This document shows positions 3,831 through 41,896 of a DNA stretch of 64,000 nucleotides, piece after piece. The stretch comes from Escherichia phage LYE-01: sequence record PQ303785.1. The stretch is one strand, 5' to 3'. Each line of letters starts with the position of its first letter. The stretch's first letter is position 1. The notes beneath the pieces were generated by a model. It did no database searches and was not told where the DNA came from. It saw nothing but the letters and a program-made list of their open reading frames with translations. The position numbers and the translations under genes were made by a program.

Positions 3831-4100
3831 ATGGAAAACTTAATTATCATCGAACAATCTTTCAACGATTATGGTATGGCTTACGGTTATCGTGCGATAA
3901 TGGAAGATTCTCGTGGATGTGTTATCGATATTGCTGAATGTAAAGATTTACTGCAGCTTTTGAAGATTGTTCGCAAAAATTGGGATTGTGAAAACATTAA
4001 AGTTCGTGTTGTAACGGAAGAAGAAACTGTTTTTCATGATGTAAAATTTGCCAAAGGTGCTGCTACTCTTCTGAAACGCATCGCTCCACTGTTCAATTAA
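3831..4100 (+). CDS. hypothetical protein
   Basis: Track ORF starts TTG 3819; first ATG 3831 after GGAG. Confidence 0.45.
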   Translation: MENLIIIEQSFNDYGMAYGYRAIMEDSRGCVIDIAECKDLLQLLKIVRKNWDCENIKVRVVTEEETVFHDVKFAKGAATLLKRIAPLFN

Positions 4101-4113
4101 TGAGGAAATTGTA

Positions 4114-4329
4114 ATGAAACGTAAAATTGTTCAGAACTGCACTAATGACGAATTTGAAGATGTATTATTCGATCCAGATTTGGTAGTAGTTCAAAAGGAA
4201 CACACCATTAAGTTTACCCACTTGACTTCGGTTTATGTGTATGAAAAGGTTGGTGATAAACAACCAATTTACGGTGTATTTCGTGAAATTACTGAAGATG
4301 GCACAACTTACTGGAAGGAAATTTATTAA
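4114..4329 (+). CDS. hypothetical 71-aa protein, possibly Cef (tRNA-processing modifier)
   Basis: 71 aa equals T4 cef length; synteny only. Confidence 0.4.
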
Positions 4330-4748
4330 TGGCTATTAAATTTGAAGTTAATAAATGGTATCAATTTAAAAATAAACAAGCTCAAGAAAATTTTATTAAA
4401 GACCATACTGATAACGGAATCTATGCACGACGTTTAGGTATAGAACCTTTTAAAATTTTAGATGTTGACTATTACGGGCGTCCTACTAAAATTGTGACAT
4501 CTACTGGCACAATTGGATATTCAACATGTGGTACAGTCATTGACGAAAACTTTATCTGGCTCTCTACTAACGAAGCTGAGTTCTTTGATGAAGTTGAAAA
4601 TCCATATCAGGCATCTGAAGAGCAAGGGCAGGAAGAGCAAGAACAAATAGAAGATTTCACAGAATTCCCTGTCATGAAAGTTACTATTGAAAATAATGAA
4701 CAGGCATGGTCCTTGTATCAGATGTTGAAAGCACACTTTAAGGAATAA
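4329..4748 (+). CDS. hypothetical 139-aa protein, possibly GoF/ComC-alpha
   Basis: Size and position resemble T4 goF; acidic C-terminal tail. Confidence 0.4.
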
Positions 4749-4750
4749 TT

Positions 4751-4927
4751 ATGCCAATGTATGATTATAAATGCCAATCCGAAGATTGTGGGCATGAATA
4801 TGAAAAAATTAAAAAGATTTCTGAACGAGAAAATGATGTTTGCCCTAAATGTCATCGTTTGTCTACTCGTCGGCCTTCTGCTCCTAAGCATGTGAATGGT
4901 GGATTTTACGACTTACTTAAAGGGTAA
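4751..4927 (+). CDS. small zinc-ribbon protein (58 aa, two CxxC pairs)
   Basis: Not in ORF track (under 60 aa); ATG 4751 to TAA 4925-4927; CQSEDC ... CPKC. Confidence 0.5.
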   Translation: MPMYDYKCQSEDCGHEYEKIKKISERENDVCPKCHRLSTRRPSAPKHVNGGFYDLLKG

Positions 4928-11440: not shown

Positions 11441-11930
11441 CTTGACTAGTGAAATGAAGGTCAAAATTGCTGATACAGCAAGATACTCTTTAAAACAAAA
11501 TCCTAATCAGGATAAAGCAGAAGTTATTGAAAGATGTCGCATCGCTGTGTACGCAGAATTTTTTGTAGCAGATTGGCTAAGCGGGTATGTTAACAAAGGC
11601 CAAGAGGATGTTAATGACCCGTATACATATGCGTGGGATGTACTGGCGCATCCAAAATACTGCGGGCTTCGTGTAGAAGTCAAAACACATCAAACTGACT
11701 CACGTTGGATTTCGGTAACAACCGGATGCAGCGGAGAGTATCCATACGGTTCTGGAATAAATCTAGGGCCCATTCTGAATCATCAAGTCGCTGACTGTAT
11801 AATTATATTCAACACTAAAGAAATTCATCCAGGTGTCATCCAGTACACTCCGAAGTTCATCGGTGATAGAGAAGACCTTCGTAAGGTTGTAAGAAAAAGC
11901 AACTACAACGGATGGTATCTTTCCATTTAA
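11373..11930 (+). CDS. denB: endonuclease IV (DenB)
   Basis: 185 aa (T4 DenB length); position after rIIB. Confidence 0.7.
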   Translation: MQKTNPGLQRLFQIPTFTLSNSDLTSEMKVKIADTARYSLKQNPNQDKAEVIERCRIAVYAEFFVADWLSGYVNKGQEDVNDPYTYAWDVLAHPKYCGLRVEVKTHQTDSRWISVTTGCSGEYPYGSGINLGPILNHQVADCIIIFNTKEIHPGVIQYTPKFIGDREDLRKVVRKSNYNGWYLSI

Positions 11931-32963: not shown

Positions 32964-33206
32964 ATGAGATTACAACGCCAGAGCATCAAAGATTCAGAAG
33001 TTAGAGGTAAATGGTATTTTAATATCATCGGTAAAGATTCTGAACTCGTTGAAAAAGCTGAACATCTTTTACGTGATATGGGATGGGAAGATGAATGCGA
33101 TGGATGCCCTCTTTATGAGGATGGAGAAAGCGCAGGATTCTGGATTTATCATTCTGACGTCGATCAGTTTAAAGCTGATTGGAAAATTGTGAAAAAGTCT
33201 GTTTGA
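32964..33206 (+). CDS. hypothetical protein
   Basis: ORF track; early promoter and AAGGAG SD upstream. Confidence 0.5.
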   Translation: MRLQRQSIKDSEVRGKWYFNIIGKDSELVEKAEHLLRDMGWEDECDGCPLYEDGESAGFWIYHSDVDQFKADWKIVKKSV

Positions 33207-33216
33207 GGAAAATATT

Positions 33217-33552
33217 ATGTCTGACATTCACGTAACTGGAATTGCCCAAGTAAACATCCGTTGCCAATTTAAAACTGTACCTGGGGTGACTCATATTACT
33301 TTATCACACGACCCATATTCTCGTGGAAGACAGATAACTGGCGTAATTAAGTTTTTCGGTGGAATTGGCGGAAACGAATTTACTATAGGCGATGACGAAA
33401 TTGTTGGCTGTAAACTAAAAGTTCAAAAGGGCGTGTTAGAACTTTTTAGTGATGAAGTTTTTGATGAAATCTCACGAGCAGTTAATAAAGGAATGTTAAC
33501 GTTAATCAAAATGATTAAAGCCAGTGGATATGTTCCCGATCCTTTATATTAG
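33217..33552 (+). CDS. hypothetical protein
   Basis: ORF track. Confidence 0.5.
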   Translation: MSDIHVTGIAQVNIRCQFKTVPGVTHITLSHDPYSRGRQITGVIKFFGGIGGNEFTIGDDEIVGCKLKVQKGVLELFSDEVFDEISRAVNKGMLTLIKMIKASGYVPDPLY

Positions 33553-33560
33553 GAGATAAT

Positions 33561-34387
<827 letters not shown>

Positions 34388-34407
34388 AATAACGCGTGGC
34401 GGAAAAT

Positions 34408-34755
34408 ATGAACTTTAATTATTATCCTATTCTATTAGAAAAAGACGCAAAACAACCAAAATGGCAGGGTCCTCAGTTTATTAAAGGCGTCTATCAATTA
34501 GTAGTTCCTAAAGACAAGATTTATAGTAGTTGTTTCACTGAATCCGCTTGCAGTATTTTCGGTAATAGTTCTCCGTATTGGAATTTTGATATAAAGCTGG
34601 ATAGAAATATTGATATTTGGTTGAAAGCTATGGATATTGACAATATCACGTTTGATGAGAATAATTATCATATTATTGGTCGTTTTTCCAAACGTGGTAA
34701 AGAATTATATTTCACGCCTGAAATTGAAAGAAAATTTGACGCTAAACCGTATTGA
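34408..34755 (+). CDS. hypothetical 115-aa protein between frd and td
   Basis: Track ORF starts GTG 34396; first ATG 34408; no recognisable motif. Confidence 0.45.
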   Translation: MNFNYYPILLEKDAKQPKWQGPQFIKGVYQLVVPKDKIYSSCFTESACSIFGNSSPYWNFDIKLDRNIDIWLKAMDIDNITFDENNYHIIGRFSKRGKELYFTPEIERKFDAKPY

Positions 34756-34800
34756 TTATTTAGCTTCATAAAATGTATTATAATTTATATAAGGTACTAA

Positions 34801-35661
34801 ATGAAACAATACCAAGATTTAATTAAAGACATTTTTGAAAATGGCTATGAAACTGATGACCGAACAGGCACAGGAACAATTGCTTTGTTCGGTACTAAAT
34901 TACGCTGGGATTTAAGTAAAGGTTTTCCTGCAGTAACAACTAAGAAGCTCGCCTGGAAAGCTTGCATTGCTGAGCTAATATGGTTTTTATCAGGAAGCAC
35001 AAATGTCAATGATTTACGATTAATTCAGCATGATTCATTAATTCAAGGCAAAACAGTCTGGGATGAAAATTACGAAAATCAAGCAAAAGATTTAGGATAC
35101 CATAGCGGTGAACTTGGTCCAATTTATGGAAAACAATGGCGTGATTTTGGCGGTGTAGACCAAATTATAGAAGTTATTGATCGTATTAAAAAACTGCCGA
35201 ATGATAGGCGTCAAATTGTTTCTGCATGGAATCCAGCTGAACTTAAATATATGGCATTACCGCCTTGTCATATGTTCTATCAGTTTAATGTGCGTAATGG
35301 CTATTTGGATTTGCAGTGGTATCAAAGAAGTGTTGACGTGTTCTTGGGCTTGCCATTCAACATTGCATCATATGCTGCATTAGTTCATATTGTAGCTAAG
35401 ATGTGTAATCTTATTCCAGGAGATTTGATATTTTCTGGTGGTAATACTCATATCTATATGAATCACGTAGAACAATGTAAAGAAATTTTGCGTCGTGAAC
35501 CTATGGATTTATGCGAATTACAATTAAAATTTCCAGATGAATTTGATGAATGGGACACAGAATCACAGGTATTTTGGTTGAGTCAATTCGCAAAGCCGCA
35601 TAATTTTGTTCTTAACAACTATGTATCTCACCCTCCTATTAAAGGAAAAATGGCGGTGTAA
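34801..35661 (+). CDS. td: thymidylate synthase, uninterrupted (no intron)
   Basis: 286 aa continuous ORF; LPPCH active-site motif. Confidence 0.9.
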   Translation: MKQYQDLIKDIFENGYETDDRTGTGTIALFGTKLRWDLSKGFPAVTTKKLAWKACIAELIWFLSGSTNVNDLRLIQHDSLIQGKTVWDENYENQAKDLGYHSGELGPIYGKQWRDFGGVDQIIEVIDRIKKLPNDRRQIVSAWNPAELKYMALPPCHMFYQFNVRNGYLDLQWYQRSVDVFLGLPFNIASYAALVHIVAKMCNLIPGDLIFSGGNTHIYMNHVEQCKEILRREPMDLCELQLKFPDEFDEWDTESQVFWLSQFAKPHNFVLNNYVSHPPIKGKMAV

Positions 35662-35684
35662 TTAATTATTAATTGTGAGGATAT

Positions 35685-35948
35685 ATGATTTTACGATTTA
35701 AAGATACTTCTGGTGTAGTTCTTTTTACACTTCCTAACCCAAGCGAGTTAGAAGTTCCAGGACCAAATCAGCCTATTATAATTTATGGCAAAAAATATTA
35801 TACTCATAAAATGACTCGTGAGTATTTTGATAATAAAATTTCTACGGTTAAAACTTCTTCAGATTGTTATTATGATATTACTGTTTTAACGGAAAAACAA
35901 TATGACGAATTATTACCGCGCGGGCCGTCTATGCCAAGTAGTGAATAA
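35685..35948 (+). CDS. hypothetical protein (nrdA.2 position)
   Basis: ORF track. Confidence 0.45.
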
Positions 35949-36228
35949 ATATAAATCCGACTTTGATGTTAATATTCACCGTGGTACATTTTGGGGAAAT
36001 TACGTCGGTAAAGATGCTGGCAGCCGGGAGGCTGCCATTGAATTATTCAAAAAAGATTTTATACGTCGAATTAAATCCGGAGAAATAACTAAAGCACATT
36101 TAGAGCCTTTACGTGGAATGAGGCTAGGATGCACATGTAAACCAAAGCCGTGTCATGGTGATATAATAGCTCATATAGTTAACCGATTGTTTAAAGACGA
36201 TTTTCAAGTTGAGGACTTATGCAATTAA
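35902..36228 (+). CDS. hypothetical protein, DUF4326-like (nrdA.1 position)
   Basis: [13 protein letters not shown] motif resembles DUF4326; from memory. Confidence 0.4.
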
Positions 36229-38483
36229 TTAATGTTATCAAAAGTAGTGGTGTTTCTCAAAGCTTTGACCCGCAAAAAATTATTAAAGTTTTATCTTGGG
36301 CAGCTGAAGGAACATCTGTAGATCCTTATGAATTATATGAAAATATTAAATCATATCTCCGTGATGGAATGACAACTGATGACATTCAGACTATTGTCAT
36401 TAAGGCTGCTGCGAATTCTATTTCAGTTGAAGAGCCTGATTATCAATACGTAGCTGCACGCTGTTTAATGTTTGCTCTTCGTAAACATGTGTACGGACAA
36501 TATGAACCACGTTCATTTATTGACCATATTTCTTACTGTGTAAATGAAGGTAAATACGACCCTGAACTGTTGTCAAAATATTCAGCAGAAGAAATTACAT
36601 TTTTAGAATCAAAAATTAAGCACGAACGGGATATGGAATTTACTTATTCCGGGGCGATGCAATTAAAAGAAAAATATCTCGTTAAAGATAAAACCACTGG
36701 TCAAATTTATGAAACTCCACAGCTTGCATTTATGACTATTGGAATGGCATTGCATCAAGATGAACCTGTTGACAGATTAAAACATGTTATTCGTTTTTAT
36801 GAAGCAGTATCTACTCGACAGATTTCATTGCCAACTCCTATTATGGCTGGTTGTCGTACTCCAACTCGGCAGTTTAGTTCATGCGTTGTTATTGAGGCAG
36901 GTGATTCGCTGAAGTCTATCAACAAAGCTTCTGCTTCAATTGTTGAATATATCTCCAAACGAGCTGGAATTGGCATTAACGTTGGTATGATTCGTGCCGA
37001 AGGTTCTAAGATTGGCACAGGTGAAGTGCGTCATACTGGTGTTATTCCTTTTTGGAAACATTTTCAGACTGCTGTTAAATCATGTTCACAGGGCGGAATT
37101 CGTGGCGGCGCTGCTACTGCTTATTATCCTATTTGGCATTTGGAAGTTGAAAATCTTCTCGTTTTGAAAAATAACAAAGGCGTAGAAGAAAACCGTATCC
37201 GTCATATGGATTATGGTGTCCAGCTGAATGATTTGATGATGGAACGTTTTGGAAAGAACGACTACATTACTTTGTTCAGTCCGCATGAAATGGGTGGCGA
37301 GCTTTATTATTCTTATTTTAAAGACCAAGACCGTTTCCGTGAATTATACGAAGCAGCAGAAAAAGATCCTAATATTCGTAAAAAGCGTATTAAAGCTCGT
37401 GAACTATTTGAATTGCTCATGACTGAACGCTCAGGAACAGCAAGGATTTATGTGCAGTTCATTGATAATACGAATAACTATACTCCGTTTATTCGTGAAA
37501 AGGCACCTATTCGTCAGAGTAACTTGTGTTGTGAAATTGCTATTCCAACAAATGATGTGAATAGTCCTGATGCTGAAATTGGATTGTGCACGTTATCTGC
37601 ATTTGTGTTGGATAACTTCGATTGGCAAGACCAAGATAAAATTAATGAATTAGCAGAAGTTCAAGTTCGCGCTCTTGATAATCTTTTGGATTACCAAGGA
37701 TATCCAGTTCCTGAAGCAGAAAAAGCTAAAAAGCGTCGAAATCTTGGTGTAGGTGTTACCAACTATGCAGCTTGGCTGGCAAGTAACTTTGCTTCTTATG
37801 AAGATGCTAACGATTTAACACATGAACTATTTGAGAGATTACAGTATGGACTCATTAAAGCATCCATTAAGCTCGCCAAAGAAAAAGGACCTTGCGAATA
37901 TTATTCAGACACTCGTTGGTCTCGAGGCGAATTACCTATCGACTGGTACAATAAAAAGATTGACCAAATCGCAGCTCCAAAATACGTTTGTGACTGGTCG
38001 GCGCTGCGGGAAGACCTTAAGCTCTTTGGCATCCGTAATAGCACATTATCAGCACTTATGCCATGTGAGTCATCTTCCCAAGTTTCTAACAGTACAAACG
38101 GTATCGAGCCTCCACGTGGACCAGTCTCTGTTAAAGAATCAAAAGAGGGTTCCTTTAATCAAGTCGTGCCCAATATTGAACATAACATAGACCTATATGA
38201 TTATACGTGGAAATTAGCTAAGAAAGGTAATAAACCTTATCTTACGCAGGTAGCTATTATGCTGAAATGGGTATGTCAATCAGCTTCAGCGAATACATAT
38301 TATGACCCGCAGATTTTTCCAAAAGGAAAGGTTCCAATGTCTGTAATGATTGATGACCTTTTGTACTTTTGGTATTTTGGCGGAAAAAATTTCTATTATC
38401 ATAATACCCGTGATGGTTCTGGTACTGATGATTATGAAATAGAAACTCCAAAAGCTGAAGATTGTTCATCCTGTAAATTATGA
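36219..38483 (+). CDS. nrdA: ribonucleotide reductase large subunit
   Basis: 754 aa; ATP-cone N-terminus; catalytic cysteines. Confidence 0.9.
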   Translation: MQLINVIKSSGVSQSFDPQKIIKVLSWAAEGTSVDPYELYENIKSYLRDGMTTDDIQTIVIKAAANSISVEEPDYQYVAARCLMFALRKHVYGQYEPRSFIDHISYCVNEGKYDPELLSKYSAEEITFLESKIKHERDMEFTYSGAMQLKEKYLVKDKTTGQIYETPQLAFMTIGMALHQDEPVDRLKHVIRFYEAVSTRQISLPTPIMAGCRTPTRQFSSCVVIEAGDSLKSINKASASIVEYISKRAGIGINVGMIRAEGSKIGTGEVRHTGVIPFWKHFQTAVKSCSQGGIRGGAATAYYPIWHLEVENLLVLKNNKGVEENRIRHMDYGVQLNDLMMERFGKNDYITLFSPHEMGGELYYSYFKDQDRFRELYEAAEKDPNIRKKRIKARELFELLMTERSGTARIYVQFIDNTNNYTPFIREKAPIRQSNLCCEIAIPTNDVNSPDAEIGLCTLSAFVLDNFDWQDQDKINELAEVQVRALDNLLDYQGYPVPEAEKAKKRRNLGVGVTNYAAWLASNFASYEDANDLTHELFERLQYGLIKASIKLAKEKGPCEYYSDTRWSRGELPIDWYNKKIDQIAAPKYVCDWSALREDLKLFGIRNSTLSALMPCESSSQVSNSTNGIEPPRGPVSVKESKEGSFNQVVPNIEHNIDLYDYTWKLAKKGNKPYLTQVAIMLKWVCQSASANTYYDPQIFPKGKVPMSVMIDDLLYFWYFGGKNFYYHNTRDGSGTDDYEIETPKAEDCSSCKL

Positions 38484-38534
38484 TATAATTTGACTCACGG
38501 ACGAGTCACTATCTATTAACTAAGTGGAAAATTT

Positions 38535-39713
38535 ATGAGCACAGTTTTTAATACAAATCCAGTTGATGTTTTAAAAGAACCTATGTTCTTCGGTTCAGGT
38601 CTTGGTATTGCGCGTTACGATATTCAACGTCATAAAGTTTTTGAAGATTTAACTGAAAAGCAGTTGTCATTTTTCTGGCGTCCTGAAGAAGTAAACTTGA
38701 TGATGGATGCTGCGCAATTTAACAAGCTTCCTCAGTATCAGCAAGATATTTTTACTAATAACCTGAAGTATCAATCACTTCTAGATAGCATTCAGGGTCG
38801 TGCACCGTCTGCAGTACTTATGTCATTAATTTCAGATCCAAGTCTTGATACATGGGTTGCTACATGGACTTTTAGTGAAACTATTCACAGCCGTTCATAT
38901 ACTCATATCATGCGAAATCTTTATACTGATCCATCAAAGGTATTTGATGAGATTGTACTAGATAAAGCTATTATGAAACGTGCTGAGTCCATTGGTCGCT
39001 ATTACGATGATGTTCTTAAAAAGACCCGTGAATGGGAAAATGCTAAAGAATTTGTAGAACTAGCTAAAGAATCTCCTGATGCTGATTTTCGTTTAAATCG
39101 AGCTATTAAACAAGAAGCCGAAGCTAAACGAGCACTAATGAAATCTCTTTATCTTTGCCTCCATGTAATCAATGCATTGGAAGCTATTCGTTTTTATGTA
39201 TCTTTCGCATGTACCTTTAACTTCCATAAGAACATGGAAATCATGGAAGGTAATGCTAAGATTATGAAGTTCATTGCGCGTGATGAGCAACTTCATCTTA
39301 AAGGCACTCAATATATTATTCGTCAACTTCAACTTGGCACTGACGGTGATGAATGGGTTAAAATTGCTCAAGAGTGTGAACAAGAAGCAGTTGATATTTT
39401 CATGGAAGTTAACCGTCAAGAAAAAGACTGGGCAGTTCATTTATTTAAAGATGGCGATGTTCCCGGATTAAATACAAATAGCATGTGGAGCTTTATTGAT
39501 TACTTAACTGTATCTCGTATGAAACATTGTGGTCTTCCATGTCCAATTACCGATGCTCCGGTTAAACATCCATATCCTTGGATTCGTGAATACCTTAATT
39601 CTGATAATGTTCAATCCGCGCCACAAGAAGTAGAACTGTCATCTTACCTTGTAGCACAGATTGATAATGATGTTGATGATAAAGTTATGATGAGTTTTAA
39701 AAAATATTTTTAA
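38535..39713 (+). CDS. nrdB: ribonucleotide reductase small subunit, uninterrupted
   Basis: 392 aa continuous ORF; di-iron ligand motifs. Confidence 0.9.
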   Translation: MSTVFNTNPVDVLKEPMFFGSGLGIARYDIQRHKVFEDLTEKQLSFFWRPEEVNLMMDAAQFNKLPQYQQDIFTNNLKYQSLLDSIQGRAPSAVLMSLISDPSLDTWVATWTFSETIHSRSYTHIMRNLYTDPSKVFDEIVLDKAIMKRAESIGRYYDDVLKKTREWENAKEFVELAKESPDADFRLNRAIKQEAEAKRALMKSLYLCLHVINALEAIRFYVSFACTFNFHKNMEIMEGNAKIMKFIARDEQLHLKGTQYIIRQLQLGTDGDEWVKIAQECEQEAVDIFMEVNRQEKDWAVHLFKDGDVPGLNTNSMWSFIDYLTVSRMKHCGLPCPITDAPVKHPYPWIREYLNSDNVQSAPQEVELSSYLVAQIDNDVDDKVMMSFKKYF

Positions 39714-39717
39714 GGAG

Positions 39718-39737
39718 TGGGCCGCAAGGCCCATTTT
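39718..39737 (+). terminator. hairpin with GNRA loop after nrdB
   Basis: TGGGCC-GCAA-GGCCCA then TTTTATT; directly precedes the denA ATG. Confidence 0.55.
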
Positions 39738-39740
39738 ATT

Positions 39741-41328
<1,588 letters not shown>

Positions 41329-41331
41329 GCT

Positions 41332-41361
41332 GTTTACAAGTCCCTCGTGTTGTGTTACAGT
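41332..41361 (+). promoter_or_regulatory. early promoter for alc
   Basis: GTTTAC 41332-41337, TACAGT 41356-41361; near-duplicate of the 57151 cassette. Confidence 0.55.
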
Positions 41362-41392
41362 AGTCTTACTGACATAACATGAGGACTTTATG

Positions 41393-41896
41393 ATGGATTT
41401 ACAGCTTATTACTACTGAAATGGTCGTTGAAGCATATGGTGATACTACAGATGGGATTTCTGTATTTAAAGGAAATCGTCGAGTTGGATATATCACCGAT
41501 CTTAAGAAAGATTTAGCTAAGCAAGTTAAGCGGAAAACGACCATCAAAGAATATCGAAATCGTCGTCTTGAGCAAGCCCGTGATATGCTTCCTGATGCAG
41601 TTGAGGAGATGAAAGTCTTTTTAGAAAATCAGCTTGCGAAATATGATTGTGAAGTATTCATTAATCAGACTCAACCTAATGTTCATATTAATAACTGTAA
41701 ATGCTACATCATTGTTAATCCTTTGACAGAAAAGCATCGTCTTGGAATTAGTAATCCAAATCGTAGCGCATCAGATATGGCAGAAGATGTTGAGGCATGC
41801 TTTAAAATTTCTAAATCTCCAGCTGAACATCATATTTTAATTAACGGTCTTTCTCAAGACGATATTGTAGAGGTTATTAAAACTTTATGCATGTAA
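41393..41896 (+). CDS. alc: Alc (host transcription unfolding protein)
   Basis: 167 aa from second ATG; position after gene 63. Confidence 0.7.
   Translation: MDLQLITTEMVVEAYGDTTDGISVFKGNRRVGYITDLKKDLAKQVKRKTTIKEYRNRRLEQARDMLPDAVEEMKVFLENQLAKYDCEVFINQTQPNVHINNCKCYIIVNPLTEKHRLGISNPNRSASDMAEDVEACFKISKSPAEHHILINGLSQDDIVEVIKTLCM

Follow-up and report, generated by a model that had tools for sequence, protein, structure and literature searches.

The nucleotide-synthesis gene cluster described here lies in a 64,000-nucleotide stretch of Escherichia phage LYE-01 (record PQ303785.1), the whole of which is called the window below. We found that the td intron with its homing endonuclease I-TevI, the mobE and nrdB.1 genes and the nrdB intron with I-TevIII, all carried by phage T4, are absent from this cluster at precise junctions. 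With a probability of roughly 85%, the window holds an ordinary T2-type version of the T-even nucleotide-synthesis cluster. Judged from their sequence, the three empty sites nevertheless appear unequally open to invasion, because the td site has a rare, fully synonymous recoding linked by published data to poorer I-TevI cleavage. "Empty" is not "equally invadable". Two features are of specialist note: this silently recoded I-TevI site, and a conserved module of a -10 hexamer and a hairpin after nrdA that mobE displaces. The genes concerned, taken from the open reading frame (ORF) table and for td also from alignment, are:

34801-35661, + strand: td, thymidylate synthase, 286 codons, uninterrupted
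36219-38483, + strand: nrdA, 754 codons, uninterrupted
38484-38534, + strand: nrdA-nrdB spacer, 51 base pairs (bp)
38535-39713, + strand: nrdB, 392 codons, uninterrupted

In the annotated T4 record (NC_000866), td is in two pieces with I-TevI inside, mobE and nrdB.1 lie between nrdA and nrdB, and nrdB is in two pieces with a defective I-TevIII inside. BLAST and inspection of the junctions showed the window to be collinear with this record, with breaks exactly at the three T4 elements. Alignment with T4 placed the insertion site of the td intron and I-TevI (~1.0 kb) between 35349 and 35350, and that of the nrdB intron with I-TevIII (598 nucleotides, nt) between 39210 and 39211. T4 mobE and nrdB.1 (~700 bp) are replaced by the 51-bp spacer. 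No extra bases were found at the td and nrdB insertion junctions in an alignment in which both genes are collinear with the T4 spliced exons, T2 and RB32. The first-pass annotation of this DNA, made without database searches, had reported continuous td and nrdB ORFs, a 51-bp spacer and an empty-site state at all three T4 loci; the ORF table confirmed the former and the exact junctions bore out the latter.

Intron sequence was also sought with covariance models. Rfam at gathering thresholds gave 0 matches in the whole window, but the identical run missed both genuine T4 introns, and we rejected this null as evidence. The Rfam group I model scores the T4 introns below its gathering threshold of 50 bits (T4 locus L001, 6509-6749 for nrdB and 11596-11826 for td), so a default Rfam scan cannot declare a phage gene intron-free. 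The search was replaced by permissive-threshold runs with T4 as positive control. At E<=10, the group I intron model RF00028 had no match in window 33000-41500, and no cryptic intron was found there, whilst the same settings recovered the T4 td intron at 40.3 bits and the T4 nrdB intron at 35.7 bits. Searches with tblastn using T4 I-TevI, I-TevIII, MobE and NrdB.1 gave no match anywhere in the 64-kb window. The 51-bp nrdA-nrdB spacer contains no HNH ORF of the mobE or hef type; in relatives with ORFs of the homing endonuclease gene (HEG) type at this position, the gap is 400-1600 bp.

The empty state is common. T2 and RB32 share the layout of the window, down to the frd-td ORF, the 51-bp spacer and an nrdB of 392 codons, and among the 40 best phage records, 13 are collinear across the whole 6.4 kb. 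We tallied the phage collection by counting matching records with at least 80% of the query in one place. The nrdA-spacer-nrdB junction (171-nt query) was intact in 612 of 820 matching records, the td insertion site in 659 of 870 and the nrdB insertion site in 1026 of 1531. The T4-type td intron was present near full length in 197 records (260 with any match), the nrdB intron in ~118 and mobE-like sequence in ~140. Published surveys likewise found most T-even phages to be without intron-encoded endonucleases (PMC2993671, Table 5), and T2 is the standard intron-less, mobE-less recipient in T-even homing crosses (PMC2790892). The state of the window is thus ordinary, T2-type, ancestral-like and already known, and most sequenced Tequatrovirus are alike. 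In itself it adds little, being that of the majority of relatives and of phages used as homing recipients for decades. The value of the region is as a map, giving exact coordinates of four optional-element sites and three endonuclease target sites. If our reading is correct, td, nrdA and nrdB would be expressed from uninterrupted genes, and the three T4 elements would be optional selfish insertions not carried by the window lineage.

The td homing site departs from that of T2. Two features of td are involved:

35323-35361, + strand: equivalent of the I-TevI homing site, with the CNNNG motif as CAAAG at 35323-35327 and a recoded tract at 35326-35361 (-24 to +12 from the insertion site)
35504-35607, + strand: td C-terminal cassette, residues 235-268, without recognisable similarity to the T4/T2 cassette

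I-TevI recognises a 38-bp site and cuts at -23/-25, its DNA-binding domain wrapping ~20 bp centred on the insertion site (PMC2988022). In the window, where insertion would follow 35349, C-27 and G-23 of the CNNNG motif are kept, and A/T-rich central triplets, as in CAAAG, are among those preferred (PMC4065259). The window td differs from that of T2 at 98 positions: 68 in the C-terminal cassette, 15 in nt 526-561 (-24 to +12) and 15 in the remaining ~720 nt. The clustering in nt 526-561 is far beyond expectation (binomial P ~1e-12). All 15 changes in these 36 nt are synonymous. They alter 11 of 12 consecutive codons and include multi-base switches of codon family (CGA to AGA, TCA to AGT, and CTT to TTG twice). 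The I-TevI spacer and 20-bp primary binding region of the window are thus unlike the alleles known to be cut, differing at 15 positions from T2 and at 16 from T4 between -24 and +12. One allele of the tract is shared by T2, T4, IME340 and three IMG/VR relatives; the recoded one is carried by the window, GEP001 and RB32, and by ~30-38 of 870 records. The flanking 75-80 nt are nearly invariant among the Tequatrovirus alleles compared. The C-terminal cassette assorts independently of both the homing-site allele and intron presence: MDLCELQLKFPDEFDEWDTESQVFWLSQFAKPHN is found in the window, RB32 and IME340, and KELCELVISGLPYKFRYLSTKEQLKYVLKLRPKD in T4, T2, GEP001 and one further related locus (L006).

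Over the CNNNG motif and the following 15 bp, the window is identical to RB32. Kleinstiver et al. assayed natural td segments of this extent with a fusion of the I-TevI nuclease and linker, and activity was at least that on T4 for all except RB32, for which it was reduced (PMC4065259). With the RB32 allele, I-TevI would contact a 36-nt stretch that has been recoded synonymously, and the window td site is best described as a known, probably poorer I-TevI substrate rather than a naive target, and its invasion by I-TevI appears doubtful.

The recoded tract may be an escape, or "immune", allele, fixed by protecting intron-less td from I-TevI cleavage and the ensuing marker exclusion. We hold this explanation tentatively, as a minority possibility. 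It is consistent with a tract that coincides exactly with the I-TevI footprint and is altered there by silent changes, with the near identity of its flanks, with its occurrence in different td backgrounds (GEP001 has the other cassette) and with the reduced cleavage of the RB32 substrate. However, mosaic divergence clusters between the window and T2 are common (five in 6.35 kb), giving a ~9% chance of one overlapping the td site. The CNNNG motif and its spacing are kept, the published reduction is partial, and a frequency of ~30-38 in 870 records is unlike that of a strongly advantageous allele. As to its origin, the tract has the same codons as distant T4-like td genes, and the window is relatively closer to these genes (loci L010, L035 and L007) inside the tract than outside it. 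Together with the multi-base codon-family switches, this points to import as a short conversion patch rather than serial mutation; an escape allele, too, would probably have been acquired from a more divergent T4-like phage by gene conversion of a short patch, and not through 15 separate mutations.

In phage N2 (locus L087, 1253-1500), td contains an ORF-less intron of ~250 nt whose 5' exon flank is RB32-type and whose 3' flank is T2-type. The two td-site halves therefore recombine at the insertion site, and the RB32-type 5' half is compatible with carrying an intron, which counts against an escape allele. A gene annotated as I-TevI-like is free-standing on the opposite strand of N2, after nrdA.2 (2073-2754). 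ORF-less td introns of ~260-320 nt are also found in PD112, CE1, Shinka, MLP2 and other relatives.

By contrast with td, the two target regions of nrdB look receptive. They map as follows:

38648-38690, + strand: equivalent of the MobE target, with nrdB nt 114-131 at 38648-38665, the nicked nt 122-126 at 38656-38660 and the FFWRPEE block at 38670-38690
~39194-39196, + strand: I-TevIII cut positions -14/-16, mapped from the insertion site between 39210 and 39211

Wilson and Edgell reported MobE-dependent nicks at nt 122-126 of T2 nrdB, and found codon 42, near the conserved FFWRPEE block, to be AAG in all mobE-less phages (PMC2790892). In the window, codon 42 is AAG (38658-38660) and the FFWRPEE-coding sequence TTTTTCTGGCGTCCTGAAGAA is identical to T2. 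Over nt 114-131 the two phages share 17 of 18 bases, nt 120, two bases from the nick positions, being T instead of C. Window nrdB can thus be inferred to be a MobE substrate. I-TevIII cuts at -14/-16 (PMC1865063), and its site in the window equals T4 intron-deleted nrdB from -31 to +20 except at -5 (T to C) and -2 (G to A), the -2 change being present in T2 too. Identity to T4 is only 84% in the equivalent of nrdB exon 1, whereas the remainder of the region reaches 94-96%.

The first-pass annotation expected all three sites to be invaded on co-infection with an intron-plus relative. This expectation agrees with the MobE target and the I-TevIII site but is doubtful for td, with its recoded RB32 allele. 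Were the phage to meet a T4-like donor in a mixed infection, MobE would be expected to nick nrdB near nt 122-126, and donor-templated repair would then be expected to import mobE and the nrdB intron by co-conversion, as shown for T2. T2 inherits mobE, I-TevIII and I-TevI at ~2x the input ratio (PMC2790892). An intact I-TevIII would also find its nrdB site. The td intron would probably still home, but less efficiently than into T2.

The empty sites could instead be secondary, an ancestor having lost its elements precisely, for instance when it recombined with a phage that had no introns, with nearby divergence clusters as scars of co-conversion. Such clusters do lie near all the HEG target sites. 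Those between the window and T2 include 35326-35379 in td, 37589-37622 in nrdA, just 3' of the site at which this gene is split in phage PEC04 (see below), and 38990-39164 in nrdB, upstream of the insertion site; a cluster between the window and RB32 (38630-38684) covers the MobE site. In addition, IME340 (97.5% identity) has a td intron accompanied by no more than a short T4-type exon tract, and the ORF-less td introns of relatives show element decay. Against this, no remnant of any element was found with RF00028 in 33000-41500 or with tblastn in the 64 kb. The promoter and hairpin module of the spacer is common to distant genera, which makes the empty spacer ancestral, and the present data fit loss and a never-invaded lineage equally. 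We regard precise loss as improbable. Local mosaicism is a known outcome of endonuclease-induced repair. The patches near the HEG targets fit such repair, which needs no selection for resistance.

The nrdA-nrdB spacer carries two adjoining elements:

38481-38489, + strand: TGATATAAT, the nrdA stop TGA fused to TATAAT, with a perfect -10 hexamer at 38484-38489 that reads as an extended -10
38491-38508, + strand: hairpin TGACTC-ACGGAC-GAGTCA, with a 6-bp stem, one base after the hexamer

Both had been noted in the first-pass annotation. The hairpin stood as described (GACTC at 38492-96, loop ACGGAC, GAGTC at 38503-07), its stem extending to 6 bp; the hexamer had been placed at 38483-38488 and lies one base further on. 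A published analysis places the nrdB promoter of mobE-less phages here and describes the mobE-less spacer as having no terminator (PMC2790892). We favour a model in which nrdB would be transcribed by read-through from nrdA, and probably from a promoter with its -10 abutting the nrdA stop as well. A sigma-70 consensus scan left the spacer TATAAT uncalled and found no -35, and no MotA box (core GCTT) was seen by eye 13-15 nt upstream of TATAAT, either in the window or among T2-type spacers. In Mosigvirus-type orthologues the arrangement is AAGCTTTAA-N11-12-TATAAT, and in one Mosigvirus record this position is annotated as a middle promoter, GCTT(N13-15)TATAAT. The hairpin does not resemble an intrinsic terminator: its 6-bp stem has 3 G-C pairs, the tail CTATCTATTA has no U-tract and the orthologues have no T-run.

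On the single sequence, the hairpin is no better than chance. The spacer fold was not significant (z-score -1.29), and the scan for terminator-like sites gave 2 against 4.0 expected by chance. The comparative data lead to a different view. We extracted the nrdA-nrdB junctions from 43 related loci, and a -10-like hexamer with a stem bearing an A-Y-G-G-A-N loop followed nrdA in 25 fetched T4-like loci. The module (a -10-like hexamer, 1-3 nt, a 4-6-bp stem and the A-Y-G-G-A-N loop) is present down to ~77% identity of the NrdA C-terminus in every locus without a mobE-type gene fused to the nrdA stop. The two most distant loci, L038 and L067, have a G+C-rich hairpin instead; in L018 the A-Y-G-G-A-N hairpin is retained beside nrdB, and nrdA is followed by a different one. 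Stems vary (GACTC/GAGTC, GGACC/GGTCC, GGCTC/GAGCC, GGACA/TGTCC, GCTC/GAGC, GGGAT/ATCCC). Among 18 distinct sequences, pairing held in 95.6% of cells against 25-49% when the partner column was slid, double-sided compensatory changes occurred at all five stem pairs, covariation scored 0.805 (shuffles, 0.278), and the loop was invariant at A9, G11, G12 and A13. These statistics are inflated, since the sequences were chosen partly for pairing, but the element remains syntenic in essentially every mobE-less locus. The hairpin is thus a real, evolutionarily conserved element. It is very unlikely to be a chance inverted repeat beside a chance hexamer, or a weak intrinsic nrdA terminator without specific role: the poor fold, the silent promoter scan and the published lack of a terminator would suit that explanation, but they are outweighed by the covarying stems and invariant loop of divergent orthologues, a fixed position 1-3 nt past a -10-like hexamer and the missing U-tract.

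The module stays with the nrdA end where small ORFs are inserted before nrdB. It is absent in mobE-carrying phages because the mobE ATG overlaps the nrdA stop. A regular-expression scan, run on the window, the T4 locus and all the loci, found the combination of -10 and hairpin only after nrdA: once in the 64 kb of the window and, over 2.1 Mb of related loci, at no other position. A dispersed repeat of the PeSL type was rejected on this basis. Transcription starting 7-8 nt past the hexamer would begin at the conserved loop A, so the full hairpin would be present only in read-through RNA from nrdA. Our best guess, held with low confidence, is that the hairpin is an intercistronic RNA element setting the processing, stability or translation of the downstream message. 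In several T4-like phages outside Tequatrovirus (L010, L012, L014, L016, L019-L021 and L024), one or two small ORFs of 54-100 amino acids lie between the hairpin and nrdB; by eye they are not endonuclease-like. Small ORFs occur here in many phages, so the nrdA-nrdB spacer is a general insertion hotspot and not one for mobE alone.

Several points weigh against our reading of these sites. The RB32 assay used an I-TevI nuclease/linker-TALE fusion in yeast and covered the -27 to -8 half only (PMC4065259), rather than the native enzyme on hydroxymethylated, glucosylated phage DNA. The nt 120 difference from T2 sits in the proposed contact region of the MobE catalytic domain. I-TevI is notorious for tolerating sequence variation, and the window still has the critical C-27 and G-23. 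Susceptibility or resistance is in all three cases deduced from sequence and from published work on other phages, and a promoter at the nrdA stop is probable on the strength of the hexamer and the published statement (PMC2790892).

A bolder joint interpretation, which we consider possible but would not bet on, is that natural selection has favoured the td tract as an endonuclease-escape allele, which spread among intron-less Tequatrovirus in the form of a short conversion patch, and that the -10/A-Y-G-G-A-N hairpin is an undescribed cis-regulatory RNA for the ribonucleotide reductase message across Tevenvirinae. If so, the td tract would illustrate in the field how a target site evolves against a homing endonuclease, and the hairpin would control processing, stability or translation, with mobE insertion destroying and functionally replacing it. 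In any case the nrdA hairpin is an experimentally accessible candidate regulator of nrdB expression, and shows what mobE displaces on insertion.

The cluster around these sites carries further optional elements. The region is 95-97.5% identical to many Tequatrovirus genomes in the phage collection by BLAST (best match 97.5% over 6.4 kb; closest relative IME340), which marks the window as T4-like coliphage DNA, in the orientation opposite to the T4 map. The ORF table gives the + strand order frd, optional ORF, td, nrdA.2, nrdA.1, nrdA, spacer, nrdB, denA and RNA ligase 1. The remaining features are:

33806-34387, + strand: frd
34381-34806, + strand: optional frd-td segment, 417 bp, with a 9-bp direct repeat TAAATGAAA at 34381-34389 and 34798-34806
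34396-34755, + strand: ORF of 119 amino acids with a GTG start, PHROG 1928, unknown function
35685-35948, + strand: nrdA.2
35902-36228, + strand: nrdA.1

T4 has a single copy of the repeat TAAATGAAA, and its frd stop overlaps the td start; the RB32 record annotates the frd-td segment as flanked by a 9 bp repeat. From this arrangement, the frd-td site is filled in the window, T2 and RB32 and empty in T4. The 119-amino-acid ORF had no Pfam match. It and the neighbouring small ORFs were rejected as endonucleases, having no GIY-YIG or HNH match; only denA matched GIY-YIG, as expected. Between frd.1 and frd (33217-33803) are ORFs of 111 (DUF7247/PHROG 3566) and 80 (PHROG 3183) amino acids, both absent from T4. 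T2 and RB32 have the 80-amino-acid ORF alone, and GEP001 has both.

A fourth optional HEG site lies inside nrdA at 37565-37573 and is uninterrupted in the window. PEC04 and HY01, which have 97% identity to the window, carry nrdA as two genes, divided by an HNH MobE-like gene of 236 amino acids (L090, PEC04, 3867-4779). The break comes just past the NLCCEI motif of the active site, and both halves have a short new extension. We also considered whether T4 mobE and nrdB.1 are a frameshifted full-length MobE, but dropped this because NrdB.1 fails to align to the 243-amino-acid MobE of locus L005.

Compared with known systems, the window is closest in organisation to T2 and RB32, with which it shares gene order, the optional frd-td ORF, identical lengths of td (861 nt), nrdA (2265 nt) and nrdB (1179 nt; 392 codons in the window and T2, 388 in T4) and ~95% overall identity. 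It differs from them by one loop base in the 51-bp spacer and by mosaic patches in nrdA and nrdB, from T2 by its RB32-type td homing-site allele and the extra 111-amino-acid DUF7247 ORF upstream of frd, and from both T2 and T4 by its td C-terminal cassette. Like T4, its td site encodes QRSVDVFLG before and LPFNIASY after the insertion point and has CNNNG at -27 to -23, but it has no intron and differs from T4 at 16 of ~39 site positions. Relative to the mobE/nrdB-intron system of T4, the window has a target region of the T2 type that is nicked in vivo, yet is without mobE, nrdB.1 and the intron, and in place of the internal terminator of mobE and the mobE-embedded nrdB promoter it has the ancestral -10/hairpin module. 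The split nrdA of PEC04 and HY01 resembles the "genes-in-pieces" reductase described in Aeromonas phage Aeh1. The spacer module recalls the PeSL and PmSL motifs (Arbiol 2010; Comeau 2014, PMC4122927), in that a short intergenic promoter element and a stem-loop precede the Shine-Dalgarno sequence and start codon of the gene that follows, and in that genes come and go between relatives at this location. In PeSL, however, the promoter has the stem-loop just upstream of it, and the motif recurs around the genome. That of the window lies 1-3 nt downstream of the -10 hexamer, which sets it apart from the PeSL/PmSL class, and it is a single, orthologous element of the nrdA 3' end with a conserved A-Y-G-G-A-N loop.

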